DNA of 64,000 nt from an uncultured Planctomycetia bacterium (GCA_964449965.1 CAYVEO010000006.1:308-64307), one strand, 5' to 3'; positions 6,302 through 29,784 are shown, numbered from the stretch's first letter. Numbers and translations are program-made. Notes: a model not told the origin generated them from the letters alone.

Positions 6302-6326
6302 TAAAGTAAGCATATTTGCACAAAAG

Positions 6327-6752
6327 ATGCCTCTTCAAGACAAATATGCCTACTTTTTACATATAAATGTGATGTTCGTTGTCCTTTCTCTTTTAAATTT
6401 AACTGTCGCGGGCTGCGAAAAGGGTCCAGGGTCTATAAAACTTATCATCCGTCACATAGAAAACAAGGATTTTGCAGAGGAGCATGTTGTGAAATTCGGG
6501 GAAGATTTTTTTATCTCAGATACAGACTATTCTGCTAAGGTGATTAAATTCATTCCGGACTTCGTGATGAATGAAAAAACAAAAAAGGTGTCTTCTCGTT
6601 CTAAGAAACCGAATAACCCTGCGGTCATGGTGAGGGTGTATTATAAGGGCAAGTTTTTGTATGACTCATGGGTATTGCAAAAGGCTGATACTATCCACTA
6701 TGTCCGAAAACCAGGTTTCTATTTTGAGTTTATTGGATTGGAGACTAAATGA
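6327..6752 (+). CDS. lipoprotein carrying a ResB-like periplasmic segment (ORF-track start 6291; start 6327 MPLQDKYAYF preferred)
   Basis: Lipobox LTVAGC. The segment KFIPDFVMNEKTKKVSSRSKKPNNPAVMVRVY parallels RYVPDFVIDIETKEAVTRTDEPNNPALQVEII of the ResB at 4180. Confidence 0.45.
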   Translation: MPLQDKYAYFLHINVMFVVLSLLNLTVAGCEKGPGSIKLIIRHIENKDFAEEHVVKFGEDFFISDTDYSAKVIKFIPDFVMNEKTKKVSSRSKKPNNPAVMVRVYYKGKFLYDSWVLQKADTIHYVRKPGFYFEFIGLETK

Positions 6753-9700
6753 GTTGCAGAAAGACGTTACTAATAACGATTGCTTTTTCTCTTATTTTTG
6801 CAATATCTTCTGACGATGGATTTGCTGCCAGGCGTGCAAAAAAGAAAGAATGTCTGGAATGTCATGCCGAGAAAAAACCGCAGCTTAAGGAAAAGTTTGT
6901 TCACAAACCTTTCTCAAAGAAGGAATGCCTTAAGTGTCATGAAACCCATGGGTTTACCAATGCCCTTAAATTAAAGAAATGGGATGCAGAACTTTGTTTT
7001 GACTGCCATTCTGACAAAAAAGGAGAGTTTACCAAATCTCACGTCCACCCGGCAATTACCAAAGGCAGGTGCTGGGACTGCCATGACCCGCATGCCTCTT
7101 CCAATCCTAAATTGCTTGTCAAGACAGACAGTGACCTGTGCTACGCTTGCCATAGTAAAGAAAAGACGGAATTTGCAAAGGAGAATATTCACCCTCTGGT
7201 GAAGGACGGCAAATGTTTGACCTGCCATATGCCTCATTCTTCAGAGAATGAATCACAATTGAGGAATACCGGCAATGGAAATTGCACCTCATGTCATGAG
7301 ACAGCAAAGGAAGAATTTGTCTCAGCCCACGCAGGGTATGATGCGGGAAAAATCAACTGCACAGACTGCCACAACCCGCATTCATCCAGTCATAAGAAAC
7401 TTTTTAAGGAAAGTGTGCATGTGCCTGTATCAGAGAAGAAGTGTGATACCTGCCATGATGCTGTTAGTTCCGAAGAGCCTCTTCGCTTAAAGATTCCCGG
7501 AAACCGGTTATGCACTATATGCCATTTAGACAAAGAGAAGGATTTAGGGAAAAAGCACGTTCATGCGCCTTTTTCATCAGGTCCGTGTTTAGACTGCCAT
7601 ACGCCGCATGCCTCTGGTAATAAAGATTTGCTTATTAAAAAAGAAAAAGACGTATGTCTATCCTGCCACGATACAGAAAAATCCCAGATGAAGTTGGCAC
7701 ATACCCATACGCCTTTCAGGGACGGGGAGTGCAGTTCCTGTCATAATCCGCATGCAAGTAATGAAGAAAAACTTCTTTCCGATTCTGCGGATAAATTATG
7801 TTTCTCATGCCATAAGGCAGAAGAAGAAAGGTTAAAAAGTTCTCATACCCATAAGCCTTTCAAAGAAGGGGAGTGTCTTTCATGTCATAACCCTCATGCC
7901 TCAGAGAATAATTATCAGTTGATAAAGGTTGGAAAGGAACTATGTCTAAAGTGCCATACGGTAACAGAAGAGAAAAAGAAAAAATATACACATGACCCGT
8001 TTCAGATAGGCGATTGCAGCAGCTGCCATGACAGTCATGCGAGTGACTTTGATGGTCAGTTAAAGAAGGCAGATGGTGAAGTATGTTACACATGCCATAA
8101 AAATGAAATGGAGGAGCTATCAAAGAAACACCCTCATACACCTGCAAAAGAAGGTAAATGTCTGGGCTGCCATAAGCCGCATTCATCAGACGAAAGAAAT
8201 CTTCTAACTACTTCTCCTGATAACCTATGCTATACCTGTCACAGTGCCTTAGTCCAAAAATTTACCAAGAAGCACATCCATAAGCCGGTTCAGGAAAAAG
8301 ATTGCCTGAAATGCCATAACCCGCATTCAGGGGATAATAAGTTCCAGGTAAAGAAGGAGGGTGCTGACCTTTGCTTTTCATGCCATGCAGGAATAGAATC
8401 ACAATTCAAGAAAGAATCTGTCCATTTTCCTGTCAAACAGGGAAGGTGCAGTACCTGTCATAACTCTCATGCTTCAGAAGAGGCGCTCTTGCTGAATAAT
8501 CCTTTATCCAAATTATGCTCTACATGTCACGTCCAGGATAAAAAGTTTCAGGATGCACATTTAAACTTTGCGGTAGAAGCAGCAGATTGTTTAGGATGCC
8601 ATAATCCCCATGCCTCAGATGCTAAGAAGGGCCTTCCAAATGAGTATATCCATCCGCCTTATGAAAAGAAAGACTGTAAGACCTGCCATGAGGAAGAAAA
8701 TGGATTGGCTAAGACGGCGTTAAAAAAGGATATTGCCCGGGTATGCTTAAGTTGTCATACCAGCGAGAAAGAGATATTTACGAAAGACGTTGTCCACACG
8801 CCATTCAAGGAAGGCAAGTGCCCCACATGTCATAATCCACATACTTCCAAAAACAAATCCCTGATGAAGGATACAGGGAGCCAATTGTGTTTTAACTGCC
8901 ATAAAGATAAACTCAAGGAGTTTTCAAAGGGATATGCACATACGCCTGTCCAAGAGGGTAAATGCACAGGCTGTCACCAGGCTCATGGCTCTGGTGATAA
9001 AGCCTTGTTGACAAATACAGGGGCTAAATTATGTTATACCTGCCATAAAGACTTTGAAAACCGCCTTAATAAACCTGTAGTTCATAATCCCGTGAAGAAA
9101 GGTGAATGCCTTACGTGCCACAGCCCTCACGTCTCAGATAATCCTGGCGGTATCAGGAAACCTGAAACAGAATTATGCCTGTCCTGCCATGATAGTTCGT
9201 CAGGTCCATTCAAATCTGCACATGCTACCTATCCGGTTGAAAAAGCCAAGTGCGTCACATGTCATGACCCCCATTCCTCTGACTCTAAAGGACTATTTCG
9301 TTCCCATCTCCATGCGCCTGTGGGCGAGAAGAAATGTAATTTATGCCATGCACCGGCTCAAGGAGTAAAGCCGTTCAGTCTGGTAAAGCCTGAGGATGAA
9401 CTTTGCTATAGTTGCCATGGTGATAAGGTCCAGGCATTTAAAAAGGGACACGTCCATGCACCGGTAGCGTCCGGAGGATGCACGACATGCCATGCCCCGC
9501 ATGCCTCAGATTATAAATTCCTGCTGGAAGATACCGGTGGTATGCAGTGTTTTAAATGCCATACAGAGGCAAAGAAAAAATTTGACGCCAAATACGTCCA
9601 TACCCCTGTAGCAAAGGGTGAATGCACATCCTGCCATAACCCGCACAGCACTGATTTTCCAAATCTTACAATGAAAGAGAGTATAGAACTATGTAACTCA

Positions 9701-9877
9701 TGCCATCCTACCCAGGGAACATTTGTCCATCCTGTGGGTGAAAAATATATAGACCCGAGGACAGGTTCTATGCTCACATGCCTCTCATGCCACAACCCGC
9801 ACGGGACAGAGAATGAATATGTCCTGTATTACAAGAAAGATAGGGAGTTGTGTATACAATGTCACAAGGTAGAGTAA
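6749..9877 (+). CDS. giant multiheme c-type cytochrome (about 42 CxxCH motifs in 1042 aa)
   Basis: Signal peptide. I counted 42 CxxCH motifs, arranged in a repeating unit of about 25 aa (K..C..CH.PH.S....LL) reminiscent of polymerised c7-type domains. Confidence 0.85.
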   Translation: MSCRKTLLITIAFSLIFAISSDDGFAARRAKKKECLECHAEKKPQLKEKFVHKPFSKKECLKCHETHGFTNALKLKKWDAELCFDCHSDKKGEFTKSHVHPAITKGRCWDCHDPHASSNPKLLVKTDSDLCYACHSKEKTEFAKENIHPLVKDGKCLTCHMPHSSENESQLRNTGNGNCTSCHETAKEEFVSAHAGYDAGKINCTDCHNPHSSSHKKLFKESVHVPVSEKKCDTCHDAVSSEEPLRLKIPGNRLCTICHLDKEKDLGKKHVHAPFSSGPCLDCHTPHASGNKDLLIKKEKDVCLSCHDTEKSQMKLAHTHTPFRDGECSSCHNPHASNEEKLLSDSADKLCFSCHKAEEERLKSSHTHKPFKEGECLSCHNPHASENNYQLIKVGKELCLKCHTVTEEKKKKYTHDPFQIGDCSSCHDSHASDFDGQLKKADGEVCYTCHKNEMEELSKKHPHTPAKEGKCLGCHKPHSSDERNLLTTSPDNLCYTCHSALVQKFTKKHIHKPVQEKDCLKCHNPHSGDNKFQVKKEGADLCFSCHAGIESQFKKESVHFPVKQGRCSTCHNSHASEEALLLNNPLSKLCSTCHVQDKKFQDAHLNFAVEAADCLGCHNPHASDAKKGLPNEYIHPPYEKKDCKTCHEEENGLAKTALKKDIARVCLSCHTSEKEIFTKDVVHTPFKEGKCPTCHNPHTSKNKSLMKDTGSQLCFNCHKDKLKEFSKGYAHTPVQEGKCTGCHQAHGSGDKALLTNTGAKLCYTCHKDFENRLNKPVVHNPVKKGECLTCHSPHVSDNPGGIRKPETELCLSCHDSSSGPFKSAHATYPVEKAKCVTCHDPHSSDSKGLFRSHLHAPVGEKKCNLCHAPAQGVKPFSLVKPEDELCYSCHGDKVQAFKKGHVHAPVASGGCTTCHAPHASDYKFLLEDTGGMQCFKCHTEAKKKFDAKYVHTPVAKGECTSCHNPHSTDFPNLTMKESIELCNSCHPTQGTFVHPVGEKYIDPRTGSMLTCLSCHNPHGTENEYVLYYKKDRELCIQCHKVE

Positions 9878-14912: not shown

Positions 14913-14928
14913 TGGCACGGAAATTGCT
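14913..14928 (+). promoter_or_regulatory. sigma-54 promoter TGGCACGGAAATTGCT (perfect -24/-12 consensus)
   Basis: TGGCAC-N5-TTGC with GG and GC 12 nt apart. The predicted start (about 14939) lies 2 nt before the ATG at 14941, giving an essentially leaderless transcript. Confidence 0.6.
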
Positions 14929-14940: not shown

Positions 14941-15318
14941 ATGGTTGAAAAATATAGAATCCTGATAGTAGATGATGACAAATTAGTCAGGTGGTCTTTG
15001 ATAGAGGTTTTAAATAAAAATGGCTACGAGGCTACTTCTACTGAAACAGGAGAAGAGGCTATTAATAAGATTGAAGATGTAAAGTTTGATTTGGTTATAA
15101 CTGATTTGAGACTACCCGGGATAGGCGGATTTGAGGTCTTAAACAGGGTAAAAGAAATCAATCCATCTACAAAGGTAATCATGATTACTGCTTATGGCAG
15201 TGAAGGTGTAGCAAATGAGGCAAGGGAAAAGGGAGCCGAACTATTCGTGAATAAGCCTTTTGAGATAAATAGGATTAGAGAAGAGGTAAAGGAGATATTA
15301 TTAAAGGGAGGGGATTAG
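14941..15318 (+). CDS. single-domain response regulator (CheY-like receiver)
   Basis: 125 aa with RILIVDDD and the phospho-acceptor region DLVITDLRLPG. No output domain. Confidence 0.85.
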   Translation: MVEKYRILIVDDDKLVRWSLIEVLNKNGYEATSTETGEEAINKIEDVKFDLVITDLRLPGIGGFEVLNRVKEINPSTKVIMITAYGSEGVANEAREKGAELFVNKPFEINRIREEVKEILLKGGD

Positions 15319-15376
15319 AATGTGTAAGACTAAAGATATAAGGATTAAAAAAATAAGAGAGAAAGGAGGGATAGAG

Positions 15377-16393
15377 ATGAAGGGGATAGCAAGATATATT
15401 CTGATAGTGATGGGTGTAATAGCACTGGCAATGATTCTACCAATGGATAGTGTCTATGCAGTTCATAAGGGGGCAGGCGGATTGGACTGTTCAGGATGCC
15501 ATACTATGCACAATAGCCAGCAGGGTTCAACAATGGGTGGCGGTCCAACAGGGAGACTTTTAAAGGCAGCCGATACAGAAGGGCTATGTCTCTCGTGTCA
15601 TGATACTGCAGGCTCTCAATATACCACATATCAGGCGACTGTTCCGGCAGTGAAAGGAACCCCGTCTGGTACACCTGCGGCAGGAAATTTCACGGATTTA
15701 GACGGGACGAATGATGCCGCAGGGCAGACAGCCAAGGGTAAAGGGCATAACTTAGGTGAGGGGGCAGCTACATTAACTCCTCCGGGTGGAGCATCAATGA
15801 CTGGCTTTACCTGCACAAATTGCCACGACCCGCATGGTGTATCTACCGACAGTACTTCAGTTTCTGCATTCAGAAATCTGAGATTTAATCCAACTGGCTC
15901 AGGTGGTGGTGGACCATCAGTAATCAATGCAGGTCCTGCTGAAGGGACATTGGCAAGTGCAGTATATCCTGAGACGACTTACTATTATGGAAAGGTAACT
16001 GGTGGAGCCGCACTGAGTAATATATCCCAGTGGTGCGGGACATGCCATGATTCATTCTATGGCGATTCCAATACTGGTACAGCATCGCCTTATACACGTC
16101 ATGCGACCGGGAATCCTACAACGGCTCATAATTTGAGCGCTGTTGACTATACAAATTACTCTGGTGTAACAGAGGCAAGCAGGTTCCCTGCTGAAGATAG
16201 TGCTACAAGTGCAACTGCCAATAGTAGTAATACTACCAATAAGGCGGCAGGAAATGAGTCTGCTGATGGAGTTTTATGCTTATCATGCCATAAGGCACAT
16301 GCTACGGCTAATACTGATAGCTTGAGGTGGAGTTATGCAGCTGCGGCACAGTCCTCACCAGGCAGCGCTTGCCAGCAGTGTCATAACAAGTAA
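15377..16393 (+). CDS. hexaheme c-type cytochrome, Gly/Thr/Ser-rich (start at 15377 with a GGAGG RBS preferred over 15320)
   Basis: Signal anchor. Six CxxCH motifs (CSGCH, CLSCH, CTNCH, CGTCH, CLSCH, CQQCH). Low-complexity G/T/S-rich linkers. Confidence 0.75.
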   Translation: MKGIARYILIVMGVIALAMILPMDSVYAVHKGAGGLDCSGCHTMHNSQQGSTMGGGPTGRLLKAADTEGLCLSCHDTAGSQYTTYQATVPAVKGTPSGTPAAGNFTDLDGTNDAAGQTAKGKGHNLGEGAATLTPPGGASMTGFTCTNCHDPHGVSTDSTSVSAFRNLRFNPTGSGGGGPSVINAGPAEGTLASAVYPETTYYYGKVTGGAALSNISQWCGTCHDSFYGDSNTGTASPYTRHATGNPTTAHNLSAVDYTNYSGVTEASRFPAEDSATSATANSSNTTNKAAGNESADGVLCLSCHKAHATANTDSLRWSYAAAAQSSPGSACQQCHNK

Positions 16394-16522: not shown

Positions 16523-17431
16523 ATGATGCTGCCTATAGTTATATTGTTTATTCTGACCAGGCAATTAGTTGCAGTTGCAGATGATACGCCTAAATTAAAA
16601 TATCTATATTCTATAAGTGAGTTAACTAAAAGCGAGGGCATATCAGAACCCCAGTCAATATTTATTGATAAACTGCATGATGAGATATATATAAGTGATA
16701 CAGGGAATAACCGTATTCTTGTATTTAACAAGGATGGATTACTAATTCAGAAGATTGATGGAGCAAAAAATATAATCTCACCTCTGGGGATAGCTGTTGA
16801 CGTTAAATTAGGTAACATCTACGTTAGCGAAAGAGAAAGCGGAAAATTAAAAGTCTTAAATTTTAGGGGTGAAGGAATCTTAGATATAGATCTTTCTAAA
16901 TTAGGCAGAAGTAGTATATCAATTGGCAGGCTCACACTTGATAAGTCGGGGAATTTATACGCTATTGATGGTATGAATCAGGAAATTCTTTCTTTTGACA
17001 TGTCAGGAAATTTCAGATTTAGATTTGGCGGCATCGGAACTAAAGAAGGACAATTTGAGATGTTACAGGATATAGGGATAGATGAAGACGGCAGGGTCTA
17101 TGCAGTCAGTTCCTTGGGGACTTCTGTTCAGGTATTTGACCGTGACGGCAGATACCTATCTGGTTTTGGTAAACATGGGGCTGATGAAGCAAAACTATCA
17201 TTTCCAGCAGGTATAGGGATAGACAGAAATAATAGACTTTGGCTTACTGACAGTTTCCAGCATTCTTTAAAGGTATTTGACCATAACGGGAAGTTTCTCT
17301 TTAAATGGGGAAATATGGGGAGCGGGAATGGTGACTTTTTATTCCCGGTAGACATTGATTTTGATAGTAAGGGGAATATCTATGTCCTGGAAAAAGGGAA
17401 TAGTCGTGTTCAAGTATTTGAGGAACAATGA
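16523..17431 (+). CDS. secreted NHL-repeat beta-propeller protein
   Basis: Signal peptide. Six NHL-type repeats (YISDTGNNRILVFN, YVSERESGKLKVLNF, LYAIDGMNQEILSFD, VYAVSSLGTSVQVFD, LWLTDSFQHSLKVFD, IYVLEKGNSRVQVFE). Confidence 0.8.
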   Translation: MMLPIVILFILTRQLVAVADDTPKLKYLYSISELTKSEGISEPQSIFIDKLHDEIYISDTGNNRILVFNKDGLLIQKIDGAKNIISPLGIAVDVKLGNIYVSERESGKLKVLNFRGEGILDIDLSKLGRSSISIGRLTLDKSGNLYAIDGMNQEILSFDMSGNFRFRFGGIGTKEGQFEMLQDIGIDEDGRVYAVSSLGTSVQVFDRDGRYLSGFGKHGADEAKLSFPAGIGIDRNNRLWLTDSFQHSLKVFDHNGKFLFKWGNMGSGNGDFLFPVDIDFDSKGNIYVLEKGNSRVQVFEEQ

Positions 17432-18356
17432 AATTCTTCCTGCAATTCTTGCAATCATTGTGTGGTCTGTTGCTGTCCCTGTTTCAGCAGGAGACTATCA
17501 CACTGTAGGCACTTCAAGTCTTATATGTTCGGACTGCCACACTATTCACTACACCCAGTTAGGGACAAGATATGAGGCAGGTGGACCATGGCCAAGGTTA
17601 CTGTTATATTCTGCTATAACAGGATTATGTCTATCCTGCCATGATGGGCAGACATCCATCCCTGATGTCCTGCAGGCAGCGGGTGCAGGCCAGCCTGCTA
17701 ACAGGGCTGCAGGTGCATTTCAGGCATTGTCCGGAAACTCTACGCCTAACGGTCATAATTTAGGTGTGGCAGGGACGCCTCCCGGAGGGACAGGCTCAAT
17801 GACTCTTACATGCACATCCTGTCATGACCCGCATGGTACTACTAATTACAGGAATCTTAAAACAAGCGTTGGCAGTGGTGGGGCAGCAATTACGTATTCT
17901 GCAGGTGGTTCTAATGACCTTGCTAAATGGGTGTGGGAGATTGCAACGACGCCGATGGCAACACACTATGATGTGAGCAATATAAGGTATAATGAACCCG
18001 TTACAACTGACTCCACATTCAGCGGGTGGTGTGGAGGCTGCCATGGGGATTTTCATGGACTCGTAAACACAGGCGACCCTGAACCATGGACCAGACACCC
18101 TACGGCAAAGGCAAATGTCTCTGCAACTACAAAAACCGATTATACTAACTGGAGCGGGATTACAGGCTCACGTGTTCCTGTAATGAGTGCAAGCGGGACT
18201 GTCCCTGCAACTGATAACACACCCTCGTGTCCATCGTGCCATAAGGCACATGGGTCAGGAAACAAATACGGACTTATATTTGATAATCCGTCAACTGCGT
18301 CATTAGAGGATGGGACGAGCATATTACAGACATGCCAGCAGTGTCATAATCAATAA
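17355..18356 (+). CDS. hexaheme c-type cytochrome, paralog of the 15377 gene
   Basis: Six CxxCH motifs (CSDCH, CLSCH, CTSCH, CGGCH, CPSCH, CQQCH). Same architecture and G/T/S-rich linkers as 15377-16393. The true start may be M10 at 17382. Confidence 0.7.
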   Translation: MILIVRGISMSWKKGIVVFKYLRNNEILPAILAIIVWSVAVPVSAGDYHTVGTSSLICSDCHTIHYTQLGTRYEAGGPWPRLLLYSAITGLCLSCHDGQTSIPDVLQAAGAGQPANRAAGAFQALSGNSTPNGHNLGVAGTPPGGTGSMTLTCTSCHDPHGTTNYRNLKTSVGSGGAAITYSAGGSNDLAKWVWEIATTPMATHYDVSNIRYNEPVTTDSTFSGWCGGCHGDFHGLVNTGDPEPWTRHPTAKANVSATTKTDYTNWSGITGSRVPVMSASGTVPATDNTPSCPSCHKAHGSGNKYGLIFDNPSTASLEDGTSILQTCQQCHNQ

Positions 18357-18364: not shown

Positions 18365-20014
18365 ATGAAAAAAATACTAATATCCACAGGAATATTGGTG
18401 CTCGTAATATCCCTTGCATTCTATCTCAAGAATGTGCTTGGCAGCGGTGGGTCATTCACCAAGACTGAACATGGCGGGACCGATGTAAATAGTAATTCAA
18501 CTACAGGTGTATATCGTTCTTCAGTAGATAAAACTGCTACAGGACATCCTGCAGCGGCAGGCGAATGTGTCCACTGCCACGAGCAGCATGCCAGCGTAGA
18601 GGGGACAGAACCTGTTCCTACAGGCGGTCCGGATGATTATCTGTTAATGCGTGCCAATGATAATAATCTATGCTATGAGTGTCATACCGGCAGTCTGAAC
18701 AGAATCTGGCCGGGTTCAGGCGCGTTGAATTATGACGGGTCAGGACATGGAAGTACAACCGCATTGTATAACAGCAGGGATGTTAAATTGTGTGTCCAGT
18801 GCCATAACCCGCACGGGGCCATTGATACAGATTACAGTGCCACAAATCCATCCCCGAGAATGACGAGATACATTGAAGAGAAGACCTGCCTGTCTAATAG
18901 CGGTGTCGCAGGTTCAGGGTGCCATGGAAGTTCAGGTAACCCTACAGGCGCAAAAAATATATATTCACTTTTCTATTCCAAAACATACAGGCACCCGCTT
19001 TCTCCTGCATTGGACGCTGTAAAAGGCAAGACAGGCGTGCATAGTTCGTTAGAATCCCAGTCAGCATATCCTACAGGGACTGCCTTTTATGGCGCTAACC
19101 GGCACGTGGAATGTGTTGACTGCCATAATCCTCACATGGCGAGAAATAATGGGACTGCCGGCAATAGTACCCATACGGCGACAGGCGCCGCATATCCTGC
19201 CCCGACTAACATTGCATCAAGGGCACTCTTAGGCACATGGGGTGTAGCGCCGACATACGGAGGGACTGCATGGGTAGCGCCTACCAGTTGGACTGTGCGG
19301 AATTTTACAACCGTGGATGATACAGCCAACAAAGAACATCAACTTTGTTTTAAATGTCATTCATCTTTTGCCTACGGCGGGACGCCGCCGACAGGTTATA
19401 CAGACCAGTCCATTGAATTTAACCCGAATAACAAGTCCTTTCACCCGGTCTATCAGGCATTTAATGTAGCCCCTCTGCATACCAATTCCTATACTACGCC
19501 TTCTGCTAATAATGGAAACATACAAACGATGGCAGCCCCGTTTAATACAACCAGCCCAAAGACGATGTATTGCAGTGACTGCCATGGGAGCGAGACTGAT
19601 GCAGACCCCGAGGGTCCGCATGGGTCAAATAATCAGTATATCATAATACGTTCCACGTCTGCTACAGATAATACATTATGTCTGAAGTGTCATCTAAGTA
19701 CTGTTTATACCCCGGCAAGCGCCCCTGGGTCGGGAACTGAGACAGGGACTAGATTTGACCAGCAGACAACAGGTGATGGTAGTGCAAATCATTATAACCA
19801 TGCAGTAAGCCGTGGTAAGTTCTGCCGGGACTGCCATGCAGGGACACAAATAGCGGCAGTGGGTAACAACCCTGCGGCATTAGCACCAGGGTCTGTTCAT
19901 GGAACAAACCTGGCTACAGGTTTTATGAACGGTGTAAATATAAATGTTTATTCAGCAGGCAGTTGTGACCCAGCCTGCCATGCCACTAAGACATACACTG
20001 CAGGCGTAGAATGA
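18365..20014 (+). CDS. multiheme c-type cytochrome (8 CxxCH plus one CX3CH-type CDPACH)
   Basis: Signal anchor. Motifs CVHCH, CYECH, CVQCH, CVDCH, CFKCH, CSDCH, CLKCH, CRDCH and an atypical CDPACH near the C-terminus. Confidence 0.75.
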   Translation: MKKILISTGILVLVISLAFYLKNVLGSGGSFTKTEHGGTDVNSNSTTGVYRSSVDKTATGHPAAAGECVHCHEQHASVEGTEPVPTGGPDDYLLMRANDNNLCYECHTGSLNRIWPGSGALNYDGSGHGSTTALYNSRDVKLCVQCHNPHGAIDTDYSATNPSPRMTRYIEEKTCLSNSGVAGSGCHGSSGNPTGAKNIYSLFYSKTYRHPLSPALDAVKGKTGVHSSLESQSAYPTGTAFYGANRHVECVDCHNPHMARNNGTAGNSTHTATGAAYPAPTNIASRALLGTWGVAPTYGGTAWVAPTSWTVRNFTTVDDTANKEHQLCFKCHSSFAYGGTPPTGYTDQSIEFNPNNKSFHPVYQAFNVAPLHTNSYTTPSANNGNIQTMAAPFNTTSPKTMYCSDCHGSETDADPEGPHGSNNQYIIIRSTSATDNTLCLKCHLSTVYTPASAPGSGTETGTRFDQQTTGDGSANHYNHAVSRGKFCRDCHAGTQIAAVGNNPAALAPGSVHGTNLATGFMNGVNINVYSAGSCDPACHATKTYTAGVE

Positions 20015-20835
20015 GATGGCTGCTCACAGGTCTTATCTTTGCAGGATTAGTCTGGGGGACAGTCTTTTTGGTCTTTCGCCAGTTAAAGCATCCAAAGAGA
20101 CTGAGGGGTTGGCTGATTACAGGGTTTCATGTATCTCTGGCTTTAGGTTTTTTGTTTCTCATATTAAGTAAACTGTTCAGGTTTGATGGAGAAATTGTTC
20201 TGGCTGAAGGACAGACTTTAAGGGAGGTTCATTCCGATTATATTTTTACACATGAGGGTCCGCTTTTTAAAGAGAATCACAAGGGTTTTTCATTGAGGTT
20301 AGATAAATTAGAATTAAGGCGTCCTCAGGGCATAGAAGAATATGTGAGCCATGTTACCTTACAATCAGGAAACAATAGTCCCATAAAAGCAGACGTGAGA
20401 GTCAATCACCCGTATAAATTTGAAGGGTTTTATATATATCATTTCAGGCAGGGTTTTTCTCCGTCTCTACTCATTAAAGATGCAGAGGGCAAAATTTTAT
20501 TGAATTCATTTGTGAATCTAAGCATAGTGAAGGATGAAAAAAACAGGGAAATCTCTCAGGATGAGGTGCGGTTAAGTAGTGAACGTCTTAACTTAAACTT
20601 GAAGTATTTCCCGGATAAAAAGAATTTACATATAGCTATTAAAGAGCATGAAGAATCCTCAAGTGAAGAAGTTATGGCACTCGGGGAGACCAGAAAGATA
20701 GGCGATTATAATCTCACCTTTAAGGAACTCAGGCGATGGAGCGGTCTCCGCTTGGTAAAAGACCCGTATCTTAATATGGTGTACTTCGGCTTTGTCTTAG
20801 GGATTATCTTTTTAGCAGGGATTATACTGATATGA
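20011..20835 (+). CDS. ResB/Ccs1-like cytochrome c biogenesis protein, second short copy
   Basis: N-terminal TM pair, periplasmic domain and C-terminal TM. Positioned directly upstream of a second ccsA, mirroring the 4180-6301 arrangement. Confidence 0.55.
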   Translation: MRWLLTGLIFAGLVWGTVFLVFRQLKHPKRLRGWLITGFHVSLALGFLFLILSKLFRFDGEIVLAEGQTLREVHSDYIFTHEGPLFKENHKGFSLRLDKLELRRPQGIEEYVSHVTLQSGNNSPIKADVRVNHPYKFEGFYIYHFRQGFSPSLLIKDAEGKILLNSFVNLSIVKDEKNREISQDEVRLSSERLNLNLKYFPDKKNLHIAIKEHEESSSEEVMALGETRKIGDYNLTFKELRRWSGLRLVKDPYLNMVYFGFVLGIIFLAGIILI

Positions 20836-21605
20836 AGTTAGAGTTTTTACTTATCTGGCTCACCATTCTCTTATATGCAATTGCTGCATTCGGGTATTTA
20901 GTGAGCGTTGTATTTGATAAGAAAAAAAGAATGGATATTTTAACATGGTCAGGCTGGCTCATCCATACATTTGCGATTATATGGCGTTGGTTCCGTATTG
21001 GCCATCCGCCATTTTTAAGTTTATTTGAATTGGTATCCTTAGGTGCATGGTTGACAATCCTGATATTTTTACTATTCAGTATAAGGCAGAGTAAAGGACG
21101 GGTATTAGGAGCAATAGTCCTGCCCTGGACATTTATATCTTTGGGCGTAGTCCTAAATACCCCAACTGCACCGGTTCCGTTAAATCCGGCGTTAAAGAGT
21201 TTCTGGCTATATATCCATATCGGGTTTGCTTTATTTACATACGGCTCTTATATCCTTTCAGCATCAGCGGCTGTCCTGTATCTGACAAAAAGAATGGAAG
21301 AGATGGATAAACTAAGTTATCGCTTTATACTCTTAGGTTTTTTGACACACGCCATCATGATAGTATCCGGTGCTGTCTGGGCAAATTTGGCATGGGGCAG
21401 ATACTGGGCATGGGACCCTATTGAGACATGGTCACTTCTTACGTGGATTTTATACGGGGGGTATCTACACTTAAGGTTAATTAAAGGGTGGAGAGGGAAA
21501 AGGTGTGCATGGATTTCCATTATCTCTTTGATTTTAATCATAATCTGTTTCTGGGGTGTGCCGGTCTTTTCCAGGACAATCCATGCTTTTGGAAAATTTT
21601 TTTAA
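20832..21605 (+). CDS. ccsA: CcsA-type cytochrome c biogenesis protein, second copy
   Basis: The WANLAWGRYWAWDPIETWSLLTWILYGGYLHLR Trp-rich signature. Polytopic. Confidence 0.8.
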   Translation: MKLEFLLIWLTILLYAIAAFGYLVSVVFDKKKRMDILTWSGWLIHTFAIIWRWFRIGHPPFLSLFELVSLGAWLTILIFLLFSIRQSKGRVLGAIVLPWTFISLGVVLNTPTAPVPLNPALKSFWLYIHIGFALFTYGSYILSASAAVLYLTKRMEEMDKLSYRFILLGFLTHAIMIVSGAVWANLAWGRYWAWDPIETWSLLTWILYGGYLHLRLIKGWRGKRCAWISIISLILIIICFWGVPVFSRTIHAFGKFF

Positions 21606-21608: not shown

Positions 21609-22607
21609 ATGTTAAACTTACTTAATAATTATCTCCATGATTTATCATCCGCCTGCTGGTTTGTTACAGTCATAGTGGTATGGTTTTTATATCAGGAAAT
21701 TTCAAAAGAAGGCAGTGAGACTGCCTATAAAATATGGCAAAGGTTTTTTGGCAAGGCAAATATTTTATTCTGGGTAAGTCTGGTTTTAGTGCTTGTGACA
21801 GGTGTCCTCCGTGCTTTAACCTACCAGAGATTAGAATGGGTAGATAGTTTAGGGACAAAACAGGTTTACCTCTTAATCATAAAGCATATTTTTTTCGCAA
21901 TCATGGTGTTTAGCGGTATCTTCATCTGGCATAGATTAGCAAGGAGAATGCAAATCAAATCCTCAGTTCTAATCTGGCTCGGTATAACACTGCTCCTTTT
22001 AATGGTATCCTTTAATATCGGCTGGAAGGTAACTGAAAATAATATGAAGACCCGCAGTAAATTAGTCCTTTTCCATGCCATGCCTTTGAGTTATTTCTAC
22101 CATGGAGAGACTGGTAAGAATCTGGAGGAATTAAGTTATAAGCGGACAGAAGGTAGATATGGGTGGAGTATCCCTTGCAATAATTGCCAGTTTGACGGGA
22201 AGAAGGGATTTGTTGAAGATTGTGAGGTAGGGAACTTCTGTTTAATACCTTTTGAAGGAATAGAGGTTTTGCTCTGGGTTGGTATGGATTTTTATGGTGA
22301 CCAGTATAAAGTGACAATAGACCCTGGCGGAAAAAATGAATTAGACGCAGGGTTGATTAATACCTGTGCAAATGCTGAATTAAAAGAGGTCTATCAATCA
22401 GGCAGAGAGCCGATGAAAAGAATTATTGACCCAAATAAACCGTTAGAGAGGTTTACTCAGGGAGAAAGATACATTCAGGCTTTTAAACTCTGCTCCGGTC
22501 TGAAGCCAGGCAAACACATACTCCGACTTGAACATATATGGAGAGAAGAACTTGATTCTGGAGGCCCTGATTTTAACCACCTTTATGCTGTGGAGATAAG
22601 AAGATGA
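21609..22607 (+). CDS. membrane protein of unknown function (about 4 N-terminal TM helices plus a Cys-containing periplasmic domain)
   Basis: Hydrophobic N-terminal 150 aa. C-terminal soluble domain with CNNCQ...C..C spacing. No family recognised. Confidence 0.4.
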   Translation: MLNLLNNYLHDLSSACWFVTVIVVWFLYQEISKEGSETAYKIWQRFFGKANILFWVSLVLVLVTGVLRALTYQRLEWVDSLGTKQVYLLIIKHIFFAIMVFSGIFIWHRLARRMQIKSSVLIWLGITLLLLMVSFNIGWKVTENNMKTRSKLVLFHAMPLSYFYHGETGKNLEELSYKRTEGRYGWSIPCNNCQFDGKKGFVEDCEVGNFCLIPFEGIEVLLWVGMDFYGDQYKVTIDPGGKNELDAGLINTCANAELKEVYQSGREPMKRIIDPNKPLERFTQGERYIQAFKLCSGLKPGKHILRLEHIWREELDSGGPDFNHLYAVEIRR

Positions 22608-23329
22608 AAAAAATCATAATCGGGTTTTCTCTGGTTGGGATGAGTATTTTATGGACATCTACATGGGGTGAGTCTGAAAAAGAGGCGTCAGCAAAACTGG
22701 AAGAGATGATTCATGTGCCGGCAGGTAAATTTATCATGGGTGCGAACGATGGTGAAGATGATGAAAAGCCCATGCACGATGTTTCTTTAAAAGGATTTTA
22801 CATAGATAAGTATGAGGTCACAAATGGCCAGTATAAGAAATTTAAACCGGACCATACCTTCCCTGCGGGGAGGGAAGATTTTCCTGTAGTGAACGTTTCG
22901 TGGTATGATGCAAATGAATATGCCAAATGGGCGGGTAAGCGTCTGCCTGCACAGGCGGAATGGGAAAAGGCTTCAAGAGGGACAGACGGCAGAAAATGGC
23001 CATGGGGAAATGTATGGGACAAGAATAAGTGTAATACCAGTGACAGTGAAATATGGGATTCTCTAAAAGTTGGAAGTTATCCGCAAGGGGTATCACCTTA
23101 TGGCTGCTATGATATGGCAGGCAATGTATGGGAATGGACATACGAAGACTATGAGCCATATCCAGGCAATACTATAAAAAATTCACATTATGGAGAAGGA
23201 CAAAAGGTAATGAAAGGCGGTTCATGGTTTGGATATGGCGACCATGGGGCACGGTGCAGCGACAGATACATAAGCATGCCTTATGTTAAGGATGAGATGA
23301 TAGGGTTCAGGTGCGCGAAAGATGAATAA
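22604..23329 (+). CDS. secreted FGE-sulfatase (SUMF1/formylglycine-generating-enzyme-like) domain protein
   Basis: Signal peptide. Segments KGFYIDKYEVTNGQYKKF, NVSWYDANEYAKWAGKRLP, YDMAGNVWEWT and MKGGSWFGYGDHGARCSDR are characteristic of the FGE-sulfatase fold. Confidence 0.7.
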   Translation: MKKIIIGFSLVGMSILWTSTWGESEKEASAKLEEMIHVPAGKFIMGANDGEDDEKPMHDVSLKGFYIDKYEVTNGQYKKFKPDHTFPAGREDFPVVNVSWYDANEYAKWAGKRLPAQAEWEKASRGTDGRKWPWGNVWDKNKCNTSDSEIWDSLKVGSYPQGVSPYGCYDMAGNVWEWTYEDYEPYPGNTIKNSHYGEGQKVMKGGSWFGYGDHGARCSDRYISMPYVKDEMIGFRCAKDE

Positions 23330-24794
23330 ACGGGTCCTTCTGATAACGCCGCCGTACCACTGCGGGGTTGTAGAATCTGCAGGAAGGTGGCCTAACTTAG
23401 CATTCATTTACATTGCAGGAGAGTTACGCAAGGCAGGTTTTGAGGTGGCTATATACGATGCCATGTCAAAGTTTACAGGATATGACGAGATTGAGACTGA
23501 GATATATGAGTTCAAGCCGGATTTTGTAGGGTCAACTGCTATTACTGCTACTCTCTATGCCGCCGTAGAGGTGCTGAAAAGGGCAAAGAGGATTAACAAT
23601 AAAATTATTACCCTTTTAGGAGGGGTCCACCCAACATTCATGTGGGAGGAGGTTCTTAGAGATTATCATGAGGATGTTGATTTCTGCATATTAGGTGAAG
23701 GTGAGAGGACAATCCCTGAGTTACTCGGCACTATTCTAAAAGAAGGAGATGTATCAAAGATAAAGGGGGTAGCTTACTGGGAAAAAGAAAGAGCAGTCAG
23801 TACCCAGCCGAGGGAATTTATTCAAGACCTTGATTCAATAGACGGGGCATGGGACATTGTGGACTGGAGTGATTATCCATTATATTTCATTGACAATTCT
23901 CACGTCTCCATTGTAAGTTCCTCAAGGGGGTGTATTCATGAGTGCGCCTTCTGTTCCCAGCATAAATTCTGGCAGGGAAGTTACAGGGAAAGAAATCCAT
24001 TTCAGTTTACAGATGAGATAGAATATATCCATAAAAGATTCGGCGTTAACGTATTCTTTATAGCAGATGAATATCCGACGAGAAACAGGGAACGCTGGCT
24101 AAAAATACTTGACACATTGATTGAAAGGAATCTGGGCATATACATCCTGTTAGAGACATGCGTTGAGGATATAATACGTGACAGTGATATCCTGTGGAAA
24201 TACAGGGCGGCAGGCGTTCTCTTCATATACGTCGGGGTGGAGGCTACGAGTCAGAAAAGGCTTGACCTGTTCAAAAAAGAGCTCAAGTTTGAACAGTCCA
24301 GGGAGGCAATAAGATTAATTAAAGATGCAGGAATGATATGCGAGAGTTCGCTTATACTTGGTATGCCTGATGAGACTAAGGAGACAATTGCCGAGACCTT
24401 ACAGCTTGCTAAGATATACGATTCTGACTATATGCACTTTTTAATGATAGCCCCGTGGCCCTATGCAAATATATACAAGGACCTTGAGCCTTTTATTGAG
24501 ATAAAGGATTATTCTAAGTATAACTTAGTATACCCCATAATAAAACCAAAGGGAATGGTCCGGGATGATGTCCTGAAAGAGGTCCTAACCTGTTATAAGA
24601 GTTATTATATGGATAAATTGCCGTCGTGGTATTGGATGACTGGCAATGACCTGAAACGCGATTGTTTGTTAAAGGGCATGAAGGCTATTGTGGAGAACTC
24701 ATTCCTGAAAGACCACATGAAAGGATTAGGCAGTATGCCGGAGGAATTGAGGAAATATATTATAACAGCAAAGACAGAAGAGGTGTACTTTTAA
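23322..24794 (+). CDS. B12-binding-domain radical SAM protein
   Basis: N-terminal Rossmann-like B12-binding region (LLITPP..., LLGGVHPT). CIHECAFC (CX3CX2C) radical SAM cluster motif. Confidence 0.8.
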   Translation: MNKRVLLITPPYHCGVVESAGRWPNLAFIYIAGELRKAGFEVAIYDAMSKFTGYDEIETEIYEFKPDFVGSTAITATLYAAVEVLKRAKRINNKIITLLGGVHPTFMWEEVLRDYHEDVDFCILGEGERTIPELLGTILKEGDVSKIKGVAYWEKERAVSTQPREFIQDLDSIDGAWDIVDWSDYPLYFIDNSHVSIVSSSRGCIHECAFCSQHKFWQGSYRERNPFQFTDEIEYIHKRFGVNVFFIADEYPTRNRERWLKILDTLIERNLGIYILLETCVEDIIRDSDILWKYRAAGVLFIYVGVEATSQKRLDLFKKELKFEQSREAIRLIKDAGMICESSLILGMPDETKETIAETLQLAKIYDSDYMHFLMIAPWPYANIYKDLEPFIEIKDYSKYNLVYPIIKPKGMVRDDVLKEVLTCYKSYYMDKLPSWYWMTGNDLKRDCLLKGMKAIVENSFLKDHMKGLGSMPEELRKYIITAKTEEVYF

Positions 24795-24796
24795 AG

Positions 24797-27259
24797 GTGC
24801 GGGAAATTATATCATGCGTGATTCTTACTGTAATATTGTTATTATGGACACATCCTGCATCAGGAGCAGATTTCAAAGGTTACACAAGCGTTACCTACGA
24901 AAATGTGGACCAGGACGTCCAGTCTTATTACCGGTGGCAGGAGAGTATGCACCTTAGTTTTAAGGACCAGTTTATGGGCAAAAACATATTGGGTATAGAT
25001 ACAGACACAATATTGGACCAGAGAAGTGACAGGTCTTACAGTGATTTTTTACCATCAGGGTATCTTACTTTACAGGGAGAGGATTACAATTTTTACACCA
25101 GATACAGTGAATTTGAAAACAAGGGCTATCAGCAAGGGGGAAGCCTTAAGACAGATACGATTGATACTACATTGAGATTAACTATGGATAAAATACCAGA
25201 GATGACATTAAGTTATAGCGAGAACAACTCTATAGATGGACTTGACCCTCACCTTTCAGATAATACGAGTCAGACAAAATCTATCATAACCAATTATCCT
25301 TTAGGCACAAGCAAGGTATTCCTCACCTATTCAGAGCAGGATTTTATTAACCGAGCCACAGGTGTAGTCAGTTCTACTCTTCTTAACCCTGCCGGTATAG
25401 CAGTTGATGGGGCAGGAAACATATATGCAGCAGACAGGGGTAATAACAGAATCGTAAAGTTCGATTCATCAGGCAACCTGCTTAATACCTATGGCAGTTT
25501 TGGCGGGGGTGACGGACAATTCAATGCCCCGGAGGGTATAGCCATTGACAGCGGCGGTAATATCTACGTAGCAGATACACAAAACAATAGAGTCCAGAAA
25601 TTAAGGTCTGATGGAACATTCTTATTATCATGGGGAAGGATAGGCTCAAACGATGGTGAGTTCCTCTATCCCGAAGGGATAGCGGTTGATTCAAGCGGCA
25701 ATGTATATGTGGCAGATACTGAGAACCACAGGATTCAAAAATTTGATTCAGATGGTAACCATATTTTGTCATGGGGAAGTCTTGGTTCAGGTAATCAACA
25801 GTTCTCTGACCCTGCAGGTATAGCAATTGATTCAAGCGGCAATGTATATGTGGCAGATACTGAGAATCACAGGGTGATTAAATTTGATTCATCAGGTAAT
25901 TTTATTACCAAATGGGGAAGTTTTGGCACTGATAACGGGTTCTTCTCATCGCCTGAGGGCATAGCAGTGGATGGTAGTTTTTTTGTCTATGTAGCTGACA
26001 CAAATAACCACAGGGTCCAGAAATTTGACTTGTTTGGCACTTTTATTACAAAATGGGGGGGATTTGGTTCAGGCGACGCACAATTTTCCGCGCCCCAGGG
26101 TATAACTGCTGACAGGTTCGGATTTGTCTATGCAGCAGATACGTTGAATAACAGGGTGCAAAAGTTCCAGGCAGACGGAACATTTGTTACCAAGTGGGGC
26201 GGTTTTGAGACAACTGCAATACCTGAGGAACGCCGGTCTACAAGCAGTTCTTTAGGATATAATTTTTCTCTGGAACCCTTTGAGGTAGTGAATATATCAG
26301 GTAATTATAGCATATACGAATACAGGAACATGATTCAGGACATTCTCCAGAGTGAAACACTGACCCAGAATATATCTATTCAGACCAATATTACCCCTAT
26401 GGATAAGGTTACGCTCTCTGCCAGGTTTTCAGGTAACCTGCTTGAATTTGAAGATACTAATAGCACGAGTGAGAGTTCTAATATAACTGAATCATATACG
26501 ATTGGGTTAGAGCCTTACAATAATACCTTCGTTTCCACAGGTTATACCACGTACCTGTCAAAGATTGAGGGGGGCAGCAAGAGTGAGAATAACTCAGTAT
26601 TTATCAATTTCTCAGGTAAACTATCTAATATAGCCGATATAAATACGAATTATTCCAATTCAAGAAATGAATTAGATTCCGTGCTTGTTTCTGAGACAGA
26701 TGCAGGAGGAATATCAACGAGTCTTGGGGTTAGAGAGGGGATAGACCTGAATTTAGCCTACAATATCACCTCAACAAAAAGTATCCAGTCAAATTCCAAA
26801 AGTTTGACTGATACATTGAGCACCAATCTCTATACAACACCCACTCGTAAATCCTCCAGTATATTGAGTTATAATATATCTGATACAAGGATTAAATCCG
26901 AGGATTCTTCATCCAAGGCAGGGCAGGAGAATCTCTCGTTTGACCTGACGTATAAATTTACTCCTGCATTATTCGCATCCAGCGGCATTGACTACTACCT
27001 GAACAAACCGGATAGCGGAGATAAAAGCGACGAGATAGTCTTGTCAGGCGGATTGAGCTGGAGATGGAAGGAATGGCTTGACCTGAATTTATCCTATTTA
27101 GACAGACAGGATACCAGTTCGAACCAGACCCTTAACGGGCAGATGGTATTCAGGCTCAAAAACCAGACCTATATAAACCTGAGCCATCAGATATATAGCC
27201 AGGAAGAATCTACCGGTAATAGACAGGTTACGTATATACAGGTAACGAAGAGTTTTTAA
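24797..27259 (+). CDS. large secreted protein: N-terminal NHL-repeat propeller fused to a C-terminal beta-rich outer-membrane-like domain (GTG start at 24797 preferred over 24662)
   Basis: Signal peptide CVILTVILLLWTHPASGA. About seven NHL repeats (IYAADRGNNRIVKFD, IYVADTQNNRVQKL, VYVADTENHRIQKFD and others). Ser/Thr/Asn-rich beta-strand-like C-terminal 450 aa ending in ...VTKSF (aromatic terminus typical of OM barrels). Confidence 0.6.
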   Translation: MREIISCVILTVILLLWTHPASGADFKGYTSVTYENVDQDVQSYYRWQESMHLSFKDQFMGKNILGIDTDTILDQRSDRSYSDFLPSGYLTLQGEDYNFYTRYSEFENKGYQQGGSLKTDTIDTTLRLTMDKIPEMTLSYSENNSIDGLDPHLSDNTSQTKSIITNYPLGTSKVFLTYSEQDFINRATGVVSSTLLNPAGIAVDGAGNIYAADRGNNRIVKFDSSGNLLNTYGSFGGGDGQFNAPEGIAIDSGGNIYVADTQNNRVQKLRSDGTFLLSWGRIGSNDGEFLYPEGIAVDSSGNVYVADTENHRIQKFDSDGNHILSWGSLGSGNQQFSDPAGIAIDSSGNVYVADTENHRVIKFDSSGNFITKWGSFGTDNGFFSSPEGIAVDGSFFVYVADTNNHRVQKFDLFGTFITKWGGFGSGDAQFSAPQGITADRFGFVYAADTLNNRVQKFQADGTFVTKWGGFETTAIPEERRSTSSSLGYNFSLEPFEVVNISGNYSIYEYRNMIQDILQSETLTQNISIQTNITPMDKVTLSARFSGNLLEFEDTNSTSESSNITESYTIGLEPYNNTFVSTGYTTYLSKIEGGSKSENNSVFINFSGKLSNIADINTNYSNSRNELDSVLVSETDAGGISTSLGVREGIDLNLAYNITSTKSIQSNSKSLTDTLSTNLYTTPTRKSSSILSYNISDTRIKSEDSSSKAGQENLSFDLTYKFTPALFASSGIDYYLNKPDSGDKSDEIVLSGGLSWRWKEWLDLNLSYLDRQDTSSNQTLNGQMVFRLKNQTYINLSHQIYSQEESTGNRQVTYIQVTKSF

Positions 27260-29298: not shown

Positions 29299-29784
29299 AT
29301 GCAAAATGACAATGGAAAATTTAGATTTTTAGTTATCTTAATAATTACTTTAGTTTTTATCTTTAGCATGGTTTCTTTACATTCCCAGAATGAGGGAAAG
29401 GCTGAGCGCGGCAGTCTATGTTTTCCGTGCCACGCTGATTTTAAGGACAAAAATGTTGGATATGAACATAAGCCTTTTATACAGGAGGACTGCAGCAGGT
29501 GCCATAAGTTTCATGGTGACAATCCCAGGAAAGGTAACCTTAAAAAGAATTTTTCCCAGGCAGATATTGATTTGTGTTACTCATGCCACCCCAACGATAA
29601 ATTAGGGCTGTCCCATCCAGTAGGCGGTAATATGAGGGACCCTAACACAGGTTATCTGATGACGTGCACCTCTACGTGCCATGACCCGCATGGAAGTGAT
29701 TACAGGTTTATACTGCGACAGGAGGGTGGTAAAAATTTATGTATAAGTTGTCACAAAGAACTTATAGAAGGAAGGGGACGATGA
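29299..29784 (+). CDS. small c-type cytochrome (4 CxxCH plus one CX3CH, CTSTCH)
   Basis: Signal anchor. CFPCH, CSRCH, CYSCH, CISCH and an atypical CTSTCH. Confidence 0.7.
   Translation: MQNDNGKFRFLVILIITLVFIFSMVSLHSQNEGKAERGSLCFPCHADFKDKNVGYEHKPFIQEDCSRCHKFHGDNPRKGNLKKNFSQADIDLCYSCHPNDKLGLSHPVGGNMRDPNTGYLMTCTSTCHDPHGSDYRFILRQEGGKNLCISCHKELIEGRGR

Follow-up and report, generated by a model that had tools for sequence, protein, structure and literature searches.

The stretch of DNA analysed here, 64 kb from an uncultured Planctomycetia bacterium (hereafter the window), encodes two ResB-CcsA pairs of the System II type for cytochrome c maturation. The question raised by this locus is what the second pair, ResB2-CcsA2, is for, a pair that directly follows the gene of a multiheme cytochrome with unusually spaced heme motifs (the 18365 cytochrome). 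Genes are named by the position of their first nucleotide, coordinates are collected in Table 1 and all relevant genes are located on the plus strand. In the original prediction the second pair was put forward as a possible heme lyase specialised for unusual motifs such as CX3CH, or for very heme-dense substrates. We consider another reading fairly probable, namely that ResB2-CcsA2 is a functional System II synthase, co-expressed with a mobile extracellular electron transfer (EET) module, that matures the cytochromes of this module; its activity and substrate range we infer. The position of the second pair directly behind the 18365 cytochrome was borne out, and a phmmer search of every open reading frame (ORF) in the window yielded exactly two CcsA, two ResB and one lipoprotein fragment. 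Both pairs are thus present as predicted, but to call them complete was an overstatement: among the window ORFs no thioredoxin motif WCxxC of the CcsX/ResA type was found besides the heme motifs. CcdA was not searched for, and either could be encoded elsewhere.

Association of the second pair with one cytochrome family

The proteins of the window were used to screen 79 loci around relatives of the 18365 cytochrome in GTDB species representatives. With at least 3 kb of sequence downstream of the cytochrome, 63 of these reference loci were assessable; the screen covered 10-kb flanks, and synthases elsewhere in these genomes lie outside its view. CcsA was found directly downstream of the cytochrome and on the same strand in 19 of the 63 loci. 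Loci with a downstream pair include Elusimicrobia, Coatesbacteria, Nitrospirota, Chloroflexi, Desulfobulbales, Sulfurimicrobium, Thiobacillus, Sulfuricella and Gammaproteobacteria, and in Campylobacterales and Aquificota a fused CcsBA takes the position directly downstream of the cytochrome. The closest known relatives are alike in this respect. In locus L080, whose cytochrome is 85% identical to that of the window and keeps CDPACH, the order is hexaheme cytochrome, cytochrome, ResB (324 amino acids, aa), CcsA (267 aa), two small genes and an FGE-fold protein. In L081 (cytochrome 63% identical) the cytochrome is followed by a ResB of 338 aa and a CcsA of 273 aa, and in L165 and L166 the pair is divergently transcribed and located at the edge of the cluster. 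NHL genes lie upstream of the cytochromes in most related loci, the cytochrome gene directly before the 18365-type cytochrome is in many loci a homologue of the 17355 gene, and homologues of a protein with four transmembrane segments (4-TM) and of a radical-SAM enzyme often come next after the pair.

For the reverse test CcsA2 served as a query that yielded 80 metagenome loci (30-41% identity), the criterion being an 18365-family cytochrome within 6 kb upstream on the same strand. Among the 30 CcsA2-type loci with at least 4 kb of upstream sequence, 25 carry such a cytochrome, 29 have an upstream ORF for at least seven hemes and 24 an NHL gene nearby; for the five CcsA1-type loci with the same minimum of upstream sequence all three counts are zero. 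In most of these loci the order is triheme and tetraheme genes, then two NHL genes, a cytochrome with 11 hemes, a short ResB and CcsA, which is the uet cluster known from 'Ca. Tenderia electrophaga' (see below). The 1-kb gene before CcsA was checked in three metagenome loci and is a short ResB that matches the same central Pfam segment as ResB2. The link between the CcsA2-type synthase and the 18365 cytochrome family holds in both directions and is robust, with the reservation that many of the loci are close to one another phylogenetically. Conserved synteny, as distinct from experiment, supports the view that the second pair is linked to the module and is not a redundant copy; in this sense it may be called dedicated, as it had been, although not in regard to the motif, as CX3CH and CcsA are anti-correlated (see below).

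Sequence features of ResB2 and CcsA2

CcsA2 reaches 149 bits with PF01578 (cut-off 29.9) and 189.5 bits with TIGR03144, borderline over the cut-off of 187.6. Its WWD domain reads WANLAWGRYWAWDPIETWS, and within it residues 183-200 (WANLAWGRYWAWDPIETW) fit the published motif WAxx(A/S)WGx(F/Y)WxWDxKExx (PMC4222556) with a change of K to I as the sole deviation. This change is common to the CcsA2-type clade, WDP[I/V]E being found in CcsA2-type proteins versus WDxKE in canonical CcsA (WDPKE in the CcsA1-type). H129 and H251, periplasmic and flanking the WWD domain, and H213 in a transmembrane (TM) segment are conserved in an alignment of 52 sequences. CcsA2 furthermore aligns over the WWD domain and all three histidines with the solved CcsBA chains of Bacteroides thetaiotaomicron (25VK; 25vk_A, E 2e-19) and Helicobacter hepaticus (7S9Y/7S9Z; 7s9y_A, E 8e-16). 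Close relatives of CcsA2 were found only in the protein collection (L080, L081), the best match in the metagenome collection showing 41% identity.

ResB2 is matched by PF05140 with 65 bits (cut-off 24.6), at profile positions 152-263 of 486 only. It retains the periplasmic domain, the VNHP motif at residues 131-134 and the C-terminal TM segment; the predicted TM segments include residues 35-53 and 256-274, and the TM histidine H40 corresponds in the alignment to the histidine conserved among 12 ResB sequences. In nearly all of 150 ResB2 relatives the match begins 40-200 residues into the protein. A relative of likewise 274 aa exists at 85% identity, which shows that the short form is no assembly artefact, and the family is small, with 573 clusters at E ≤1e-3 among 1.84 billion representatives. 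The region around the TM histidine aligns weakly (E 0.095) with the CcsB half of solved CcsBA. Unlike these single chains of 830-940 aa, ResB2 and CcsA2 comprise 531 aa in two chains and at least one TM segment fewer.

A second CcsA-CcsB pair with reduced CcsB motifs has been described for anammox bacteria (kuste3100, 257 aa; kuste3101, 322 aa; PMC4222556). The window resembles them in having a canonical pair plus a second pair with a CcsA of equal length and a short CcsB (~320 aa in anammox). Unlike the second anammox CcsA with its modified WWD motif (WGxxAWGxYFLWDAK), CcsA2 is near-canonical apart from its K to I change.

CcsA1 and CcsA2 share 34-46% identity over aligned segments, and ResB1 and ResB2 are barely alignable. 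A phylogeny of the CcsA copies had been suggested in the original prediction, and in a neighbour-joining tree without support values the CcsA2-type and CcsA1-type proteins fall into separate groups. Judged from these comparisons the two pairs are old paralogues and no recent or local duplicates.

Variant heme motifs in the 18365 and 29299 cytochromes

The two unusual sites named beforehand, CDPACH in the 18365 cytochrome and CTSTCH in the 29299 cytochrome, are present and conserved. When the 18365 protein is aligned with 24 homologues (38-93% identity), C534, C538 and H539 show no variation and P536 is conserved to at least 90%. In the 29299 protein the TCTSTCHDPH block is the best conserved part, invariant in five homologues down to 38% identity, and CTSTCH fills the first CXXCH slot of a Paired_CXXCH repeat. 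A third variant site, CX10CH, was found in the 18365 protein. Its C175, C186 and H187 are invariant in the same alignment, in which the position is a plain CXXCH in eight homologues (P0022-P0026, P0035, P0068, P0073). The site neighbouring CX10CH is CXXCH in the window and CX4CH (CQSSGCH) in about 17 homologues. Over the whole 18365 family, spacing at homologous sites varies between CXXCH and CX4CH at site 2 and between CXXCH and CX10-12CH at site 4, the last site being CX3CH; in the 29299 family the first site alternates between CXXCH and CX4CH (CFQQGCH). Every cysteine of the two proteins lies inside a heme motif, 20 in the 18365 protein and 10 in the 29299 protein. From the same alignment we counted 11 invariant histidines outside the motifs in the 18365 subfamily, enough distal ligands for 10 hemes. 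The placement of the cysteines and the 11 histidines speak indirectly for heme at the variant sites of the 18365 protein.

In other subfamilies the equivalent terminal cysteine pair is variably spaced and often has no adjacent histidine (CYSTVTGCTTH, CNTVADC, CGGRSWMNRSC), and the terminal pair of the 18365 protein could serve either in heme binding or as a disulfide. The C-terminal ~40 residues are exchanged among close relatives, ...SCDPACH... alternating with ...SGDWTGAKTANCDHSGC (P0003/L081, P0028-P0030, L021, L023), which suggests that the C-termini are modular, with a conserved cysteine pair as their core. CxPxCH with its conserved proline resembles the FGE target CxPxR, and a gene for an FGE-fold protein is located three genes downstream. 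An action of this protein on CxPxCH was considered and rejected, the gene co-occurring only in the window, L080 and L001 and being absent from other CX3CH loci. A PDB sequence search with the 18365 and 17355 cytochromes gave no meaningful match. An AlphaFold2 model of the 18365 protein from the 25-sequence alignment was too poor for a fold search (mean predicted local distance difference test, pLDDT, 44.9; predicted template modelling score, pTM, 0.40).

Do the variant motifs explain the second pair?

A lyase specialised for CX3CH, and perhaps also for CX10CH, would have a precedent in Wolinella succinogenes, where dedicated System II isoenzymes exist: CcsA2 for CXXCH, CcsA1 for the CX15CH of MccA and NrfI for the CXXCK of NrfA (PMC12285233). 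As in Wolinella, there are several System II paralogues in the genome and one is encoded beside its presumed substrate, here directly behind a cytochrome with conserved CX3CH and CX10CH. Within the lineage of the window itself, CX10-12CH and a ResB/CcsA pair inside the cluster are found together (window, L080, L081 and L165/L166). Across genomes, however, the comparative data oppose a specificity based on motifs. An adjacent CcsA was found for none of 24 cytochromes ending in CX3CH versus 19 of 39 without it (63 reference loci, Fisher p = 1.2e-5), and of the 30 metagenomic cytochromes that precede a CcsA2-type gene, 27 contain only canonical CXXCH. In P0003/L081 the CX3CH C-terminus is replaced by ...NCDHSGC and the pair is retained; conversely, zixibacterial orthologues that combine CX4CH, CX10CH and CX3CH have no ResB/CcsA within 10 kb. 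The long-spacer motifs (CX10-16CH) were considered as well and do not convincingly explain an adjacent CcsA, since they are present in 5 of 19 loci with and 7 of 44 loci without it and have counter-examples in the Zixibacteria. The 29299 cytochrome with CTSTCH adjoins neither pair and is located ~7.7 kb from CcsA2 and ~23 kb from CcsA1.

CcmF is encoded near CX3CH cytochromes in the Eisenbacteria loci L018, L041 and L049, and CcmE adjoins a homologue of the CTSTCH family in L163, so System I components are encoded in genomes that have such variant motifs. The Ccm system of E. coli tolerates both CX3CH and CX4CH spacing. No direct test of System II specificity towards CX3CH was found in the open-access literature. 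For UetJ of Tenderiales, a cytochrome accompanied by a ccsAB of its own, eleven canonical CXXCH have been reported (10.1101/2022.05.06.490989). In Wolinella itself, as far as the work of Kern et al. (2010) is related in PMC12285233, an unconventional motif alone is insufficient for recognition by a dedicated lyase. There, moreover, the enzymes are fused CcsBA with genetically shown specificity, unlike the separate chains and truncated ResB of the window.

The proposed specialisation for CX3CH and unusual motifs is thus not supported by the distribution of the pair, and we regard it as highly improbable. A specialisation for very heme-dense substrates is conceivable but found no specific support; the 42-heme protein of the window adjoins pair 1 and not pair 2. 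The variant motifs CX3CH, CX4CH and CX10CH are real and conserved by all comparisons made here, yet they are no explanation for the extra synthase. In the best-supported reading of these distributions, presence or absence of pair 2 tracks the lineage and not the motif.

Relation to the uet cluster

In 'Ca. Tenderia electrophaga', other Tenderiales and Gallionella (PMC10734462) a uet cluster has been found which consists of uetABCDEFGHIJ, then ccsAB and nrfG. In Tenderiales, NHL genes and UetJ are followed by ccsAB in a gammaproteobacterial host equipped with System I as well; maturation of the Uet cytochromes by CcsAB was proposed by the authors (10.1101/2022.05.06.490989). In a search of the open-access literature for the combination of NHL, multiheme cytochrome, biogenesis and radical-SAM/BchE genes, this preprint was the only relevant work. 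The order in the window (NHL gene 16523, 17355, 18365, ResB2, CcsA2) is like that of uet with NHL, large cytochrome and ResB/CcsA. The short ResB subtype and the CcsA2-type CcsA are common to the window and the uet-like loci, whose 11-heme proteins match the 18365 protein in phmmer with E 1e-12 to 6e-27. Unlike UetJ with 11 CXXCH, the 18365 cytochrome has eight CXXCH plus one CX10CH and one CX3CH. There is no triheme protein like UetD, UetE or UetG among the window ORFs with at least three CXXCH, and no peptidyl-prolyl isomerase (UetB) or cupredoxin (UetF) turned up between 12.6 and 33 kb; UetA, UetB and UetF were not seen, although no search aimed at them was made. The window adds hexaheme cytochromes, the 4-TM protein, an FGE-fold protein and a BchE-like radical-SAM enzyme, and unlike in Tenderiales its other synthase also belongs to System II. 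As the 11 CXXCH and the full uet gene set (tetraheme UetA, peptidyl-prolyl isomerase UetB, porin UetC, triheme c7 proteins UetDEG, cupredoxin UetF) are missing, the window cluster is, by its gene content, a relative of the uet cluster and not a member.

A proposed module with its own synthase

On the reading we prefer, the module would consist of NHL propeller proteins, two hexaheme cytochromes, the UetJ-like cytochrome with ten sites and its own ResB2-CcsA2. ResB2 and CcsA2 would assemble as a membrane complex, in which the TM histidines (ResB2 H40, CcsA2 H213) would line a channel that leads the heme to the periplasmic WWD site, with CcsA2 H129 and H251 capping this site. Heme would then be attached by thioether linkage to the Sec-exported apocytochromes of the operon, at ~22 sites in total. 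Dedication to the module would arise from co-inheritance and co-regulation, and possibly from recognition of features of the cytochrome family, not from CX3CH. With its own synthase the module may be self-sufficient on transfer to hosts with a different or no suitable maturation system, as we infer, with the Tenderiales as an example.

Several points weigh against this account. The loci are not phylogenetically independent, many uet-type loci being close relatives. The Zixibacteria loci L002-L004 and L168, the nearest reference relatives with the same motif set, have no pair within the 10 kb covered, so in some lineages the module works without an in-cluster synthase. In L167 (113-8536) a CX11CH relative of the cytochrome is followed by a ResB of 378 aa for which no adjacent CcsA was called. 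ResB2 has three hydrophobic segments versus four in ResB1, the first TM segment of canonical ResB (N-terminal region) is missing, and ResB2 thus lacks the canonical four-TM topology with its N-terminal TM1-loop-TM2. Finally, pair 1 is also located among cytochrome genes, and as it lies within a conserved cytochrome triad, its status as the 'housekeeping' pair is not to be assumed.

Some of these points would also fit interchangeable pairs, with pair 2 hitch-hiking along with an acquired module, or a general pair 2 beside a specialised pair 1. The pairs diverged anciently and are no local duplicates, which fits acquisition with the module; many lineages have the module with no in-cluster pair, and the triad of tetraheme cytochrome, ResB1 and CcsA1 recurs in five metagenome loci. 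Against this stand the tight translational coupling of the second pair, the preservation of all its catalytic residues and the pairing with the cytochrome across very distant phyla, which is kept even in System I hosts and argues for selection rather than mere hitch-hiking. We consider interchangeable or exchanged roles rather unlikely and retain the module-linked synthase as the preferred reading.

Organisation of the window and predicted regulation of the cytochrome operon

The genes are arranged in two blocks (Table 1). Block 1 (194-9877) comprises a split cytochrome b, three small multiheme cytochromes, ResB1, CcsA1, the lipoprotein and the 42-heme cytochrome. Block 2 (14941-27259) comprises in this order a receiver, a hexaheme cytochrome, an NHL protein, a second hexaheme cytochrome, the 18365 cytochrome, ResB2, CcsA2, the membrane protein, the FGE-fold protein, the radical-SAM enzyme and a large NHL protein.

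Table 1. Features of the window and coordinates of related loci.
Feature	Coordinates	Strand	Remarks
ResB1/CcsB, canonical	4180..5298	+	4 TM segments, full Pfam coverage, VNHP motif; NCBI name ResB (MBI3008724.1)
CcsA1, canonical	5321..6301	+	TIGR03144 276 bits; WWD domain with WDPKETW; NCBI name CcsB (MBI2447569.1, MBI3008723.1)
ResB-like lipoprotein	6291..6752	+	Related to middle of ResB periplasmic domain; partner of 42-heme cytochrome
42-heme cytochrome	6749..9877	+	42 CXXCH; TIGR01905 matches in 22 stretches
Lipoprotein plus 42-heme loci	window 6291-9877; L002 4364-7988; L018 13407-17839; L037 7521-11695; L041 14061-17833; L048 14112-17833; L049 7148-12075
Sensor kinase	9850
Sigma-54 activator	11321-12706		Regulator with receiver domain
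Sigma-54 promoter-like site TGGCACGGAAATTGC	14913..14927	+	14 nt 5' of 14941, first gene of cytochrome operon
Stand-alone receiver-domain protein	14941..15318	+	125 aa; from translation
Hexaheme c-type cytochrome	15320..16393	+	6 CXXCH; paralogue of 17355 protein
NHL-repeat six-bladed beta-propeller	16523..17431	+	PF01436 E 8e-24, also PF17170
Hexaheme c-type cytochrome	17355..18356	+	6 CXXCH; true start probably downstream of 17355
Multiheme cytochrome, distant UetJ relative	18365..20014	+	549 aa; 8 CXXCH + CX10CH + CX3CH = 10 candidate heme sites
CX10CH site C175-LSNSGVAGSG-C186-H187	18887..18925	+	In 18365 cytochrome
CX3CH site C534-DPA-C538-H539	19964..19981	+	CDPACH, residues 534-539 of 18365 cytochrome
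ResB2/CcsB, short form	20011..20835	+	274 aa; PF05140 E 8e-18; 3 predicted TM segments
CcsA2/ResC	20832..21605	+	257 aa; PF01578 E 2e-43; WWD domain 183-201; H129, H213, H251
Membrane protein	21609..22607	+	N-terminal 4-TM domain, C-terminal domain without known family
Secreted FGE-sulfatase-fold protein	22604..23329	+	PF03781 E 5e-55; found also in L080, L001
BchE-like B12-binding radical-SAM enzyme	23322..24794	+	TIGR02026 E 6e-124; PF02310, PF04055
NHL-repeat protein, long C-terminal extension	24662..27259	+	PF01436 E 1e-57; syntenic 845-aa NHL protein in L167
Small cytochrome	29299..29784	+	4 CXXCH + CTSTCH (residues 123-128, nt 29665-29682)

From 18365 to 24794 successive genes overlap at start and stop or are separated by at most 3 nt, and the start of ResB2 overlaps the stop of the 18365 cytochrome gene (ATGA). 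A single exact match to TGGCAC-N5-WTGC was found in the 64 kb, just ahead of gene 14941 with which the cytochrome operon begins, with 0.22 matches expected by chance; the operon is probably transcribed from this predicted sigma-54 promoter at 14913. At the DNA level the 5' end of the 14941 receiver gene and the receiver end of the 11321 regulator gene share 80% identity. A direct repeat of 76 nt (6318-6393 and 12816-12891, 76% identity, the first ~35 nt nearly identical) lies over the 5' ends of two genes, that of the lipoprotein and the NHL gene 12657, and both ORFs start with AQKMPLQxKYA; an 'MPLQ' start was also seen in several cytochrome homologues of the Zixibacteria type. This 'MPLQxKYA' element was considered as a sigma-54 promoter and rejected because the DNA reads TTGCAC, not TGGCAC.

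Genes downstream of the second pair

On the BchE model TIGR02026 the radical-SAM enzyme reaches 414.6 bits, under the cut-off of 481, with 133 bits for the next best family. The order CcsA2-type, 4-TM, radical-SAM recurs across phyla in seven loci (L005, L006, L011, L113, L119, L129, L141). In L013, L014, L025, L034, L070 and L072, and in nine metagenome loci in all, CcsA2-type genes likewise have a radical-SAM gene behind or near them. These homologues match with E 1e-130 to 1e-171 and are far more conserved than the cytochromes. The recurrent order, the high conservation and the fact that BchE, by far the closest family, modifies tetrapyrroles, would fit a system in which ResB2-CcsA2, the 4-TM protein and the BchE-like enzyme jointly provide or attach a chemically modified tetrapyrrole, or alter heme or cytochrome once attachment has taken place. 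Several points speak against this: the proteobacterial uet-type loci carry the CcsBA pair with no radical-SAM gene, the BchE score lies under the family cut-off, no description was found in the open-access literature, and the co-location may be unrelated, e.g. reflect cofactor or lipid chemistry. To our knowledge, no modified c-heme of this kind is known. We regard such a system as quite improbable. In its most specific form, in which a unit of short ResB, WDP[I/V]E-CcsA, 4-TM protein and BchE-like enzyme in anaerobes makes, transports or attaches a modified tetrapyrrole, or alters the heme or the terminal cysteine-pair region after attachment, specifically in extracellular cytochromes of the UetJ family, the idea is likewise quite improbable. 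An assignment of the 21609 membrane protein as CopD was rejected, the matches being below threshold and differing from one homologue to the next.

The large NHL protein has a long C-terminal half rich in Ser, Thr and Asn that ends in ...TKSF, and an ORF at 30963-32342 ends in ...KCNF. Both adjoin two CsgG/LpoB-like lipoproteins (24662-28713 region), and onward from the cytochrome locus of L167 the 845-aa NHL protein and CsgG/GNA1162-like lipoproteins are syntenic with 24662-28713 of the window. The NHL extension and the 30963-32342 ORF are possibly outer-membrane beta-barrels, and together with the lipoproteins they suggest an export or anchoring apparatus of the porin-cytochrome type.

Pair 1, the ResB-like lipoprotein and the 42-heme cytochrome

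ResB1 is matched by PF05140 with E 1e-49. A triad of a 4-5-heme (tetraheme) cytochrome gene directly ahead of ResB1-type and CcsA1-type genes was noted in the window (3604-6301), L091, L096, L111, L114 and L115. The lipoprotein following CcsA1 had been described as carrying a duplicated periplasmic segment of ResB. Its likeness to ResB is evident (30% identity with ResB1 residues 190-269, E 5e-15); it is not a local duplication of ResB1 but belongs to a conserved family, without a Pfam entry, that precedes the 42-heme cytochrome. A lipoprotein homologue was always found directly 5' of a cytochrome with exactly 42 CXXCH, in the window and in loci of Zixibacteria, Eisenbacteria and Acidobacteriota. 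The lipoprotein may serve the 42-heme cytochrome as a chaperone or as an anchor.

Implications

Multiheme EET cytochromes are hard to express elsewhere, and the bottleneck in their maturation is unclear. Here a subtype of short ResB and WDP[I/V]E-CcsA travels with one cytochrome family across phyla, including hosts with another maturation system. If it were true that the BchE-like enzyme acts on heme, this would add a new step or layer to the biogenesis of c-type cytochromes. As a synthase that would mature the cytochromes with which it is inherited, the CcsA2-type enzyme offers a testable helper for expressing cytochromes of the 18365 family.

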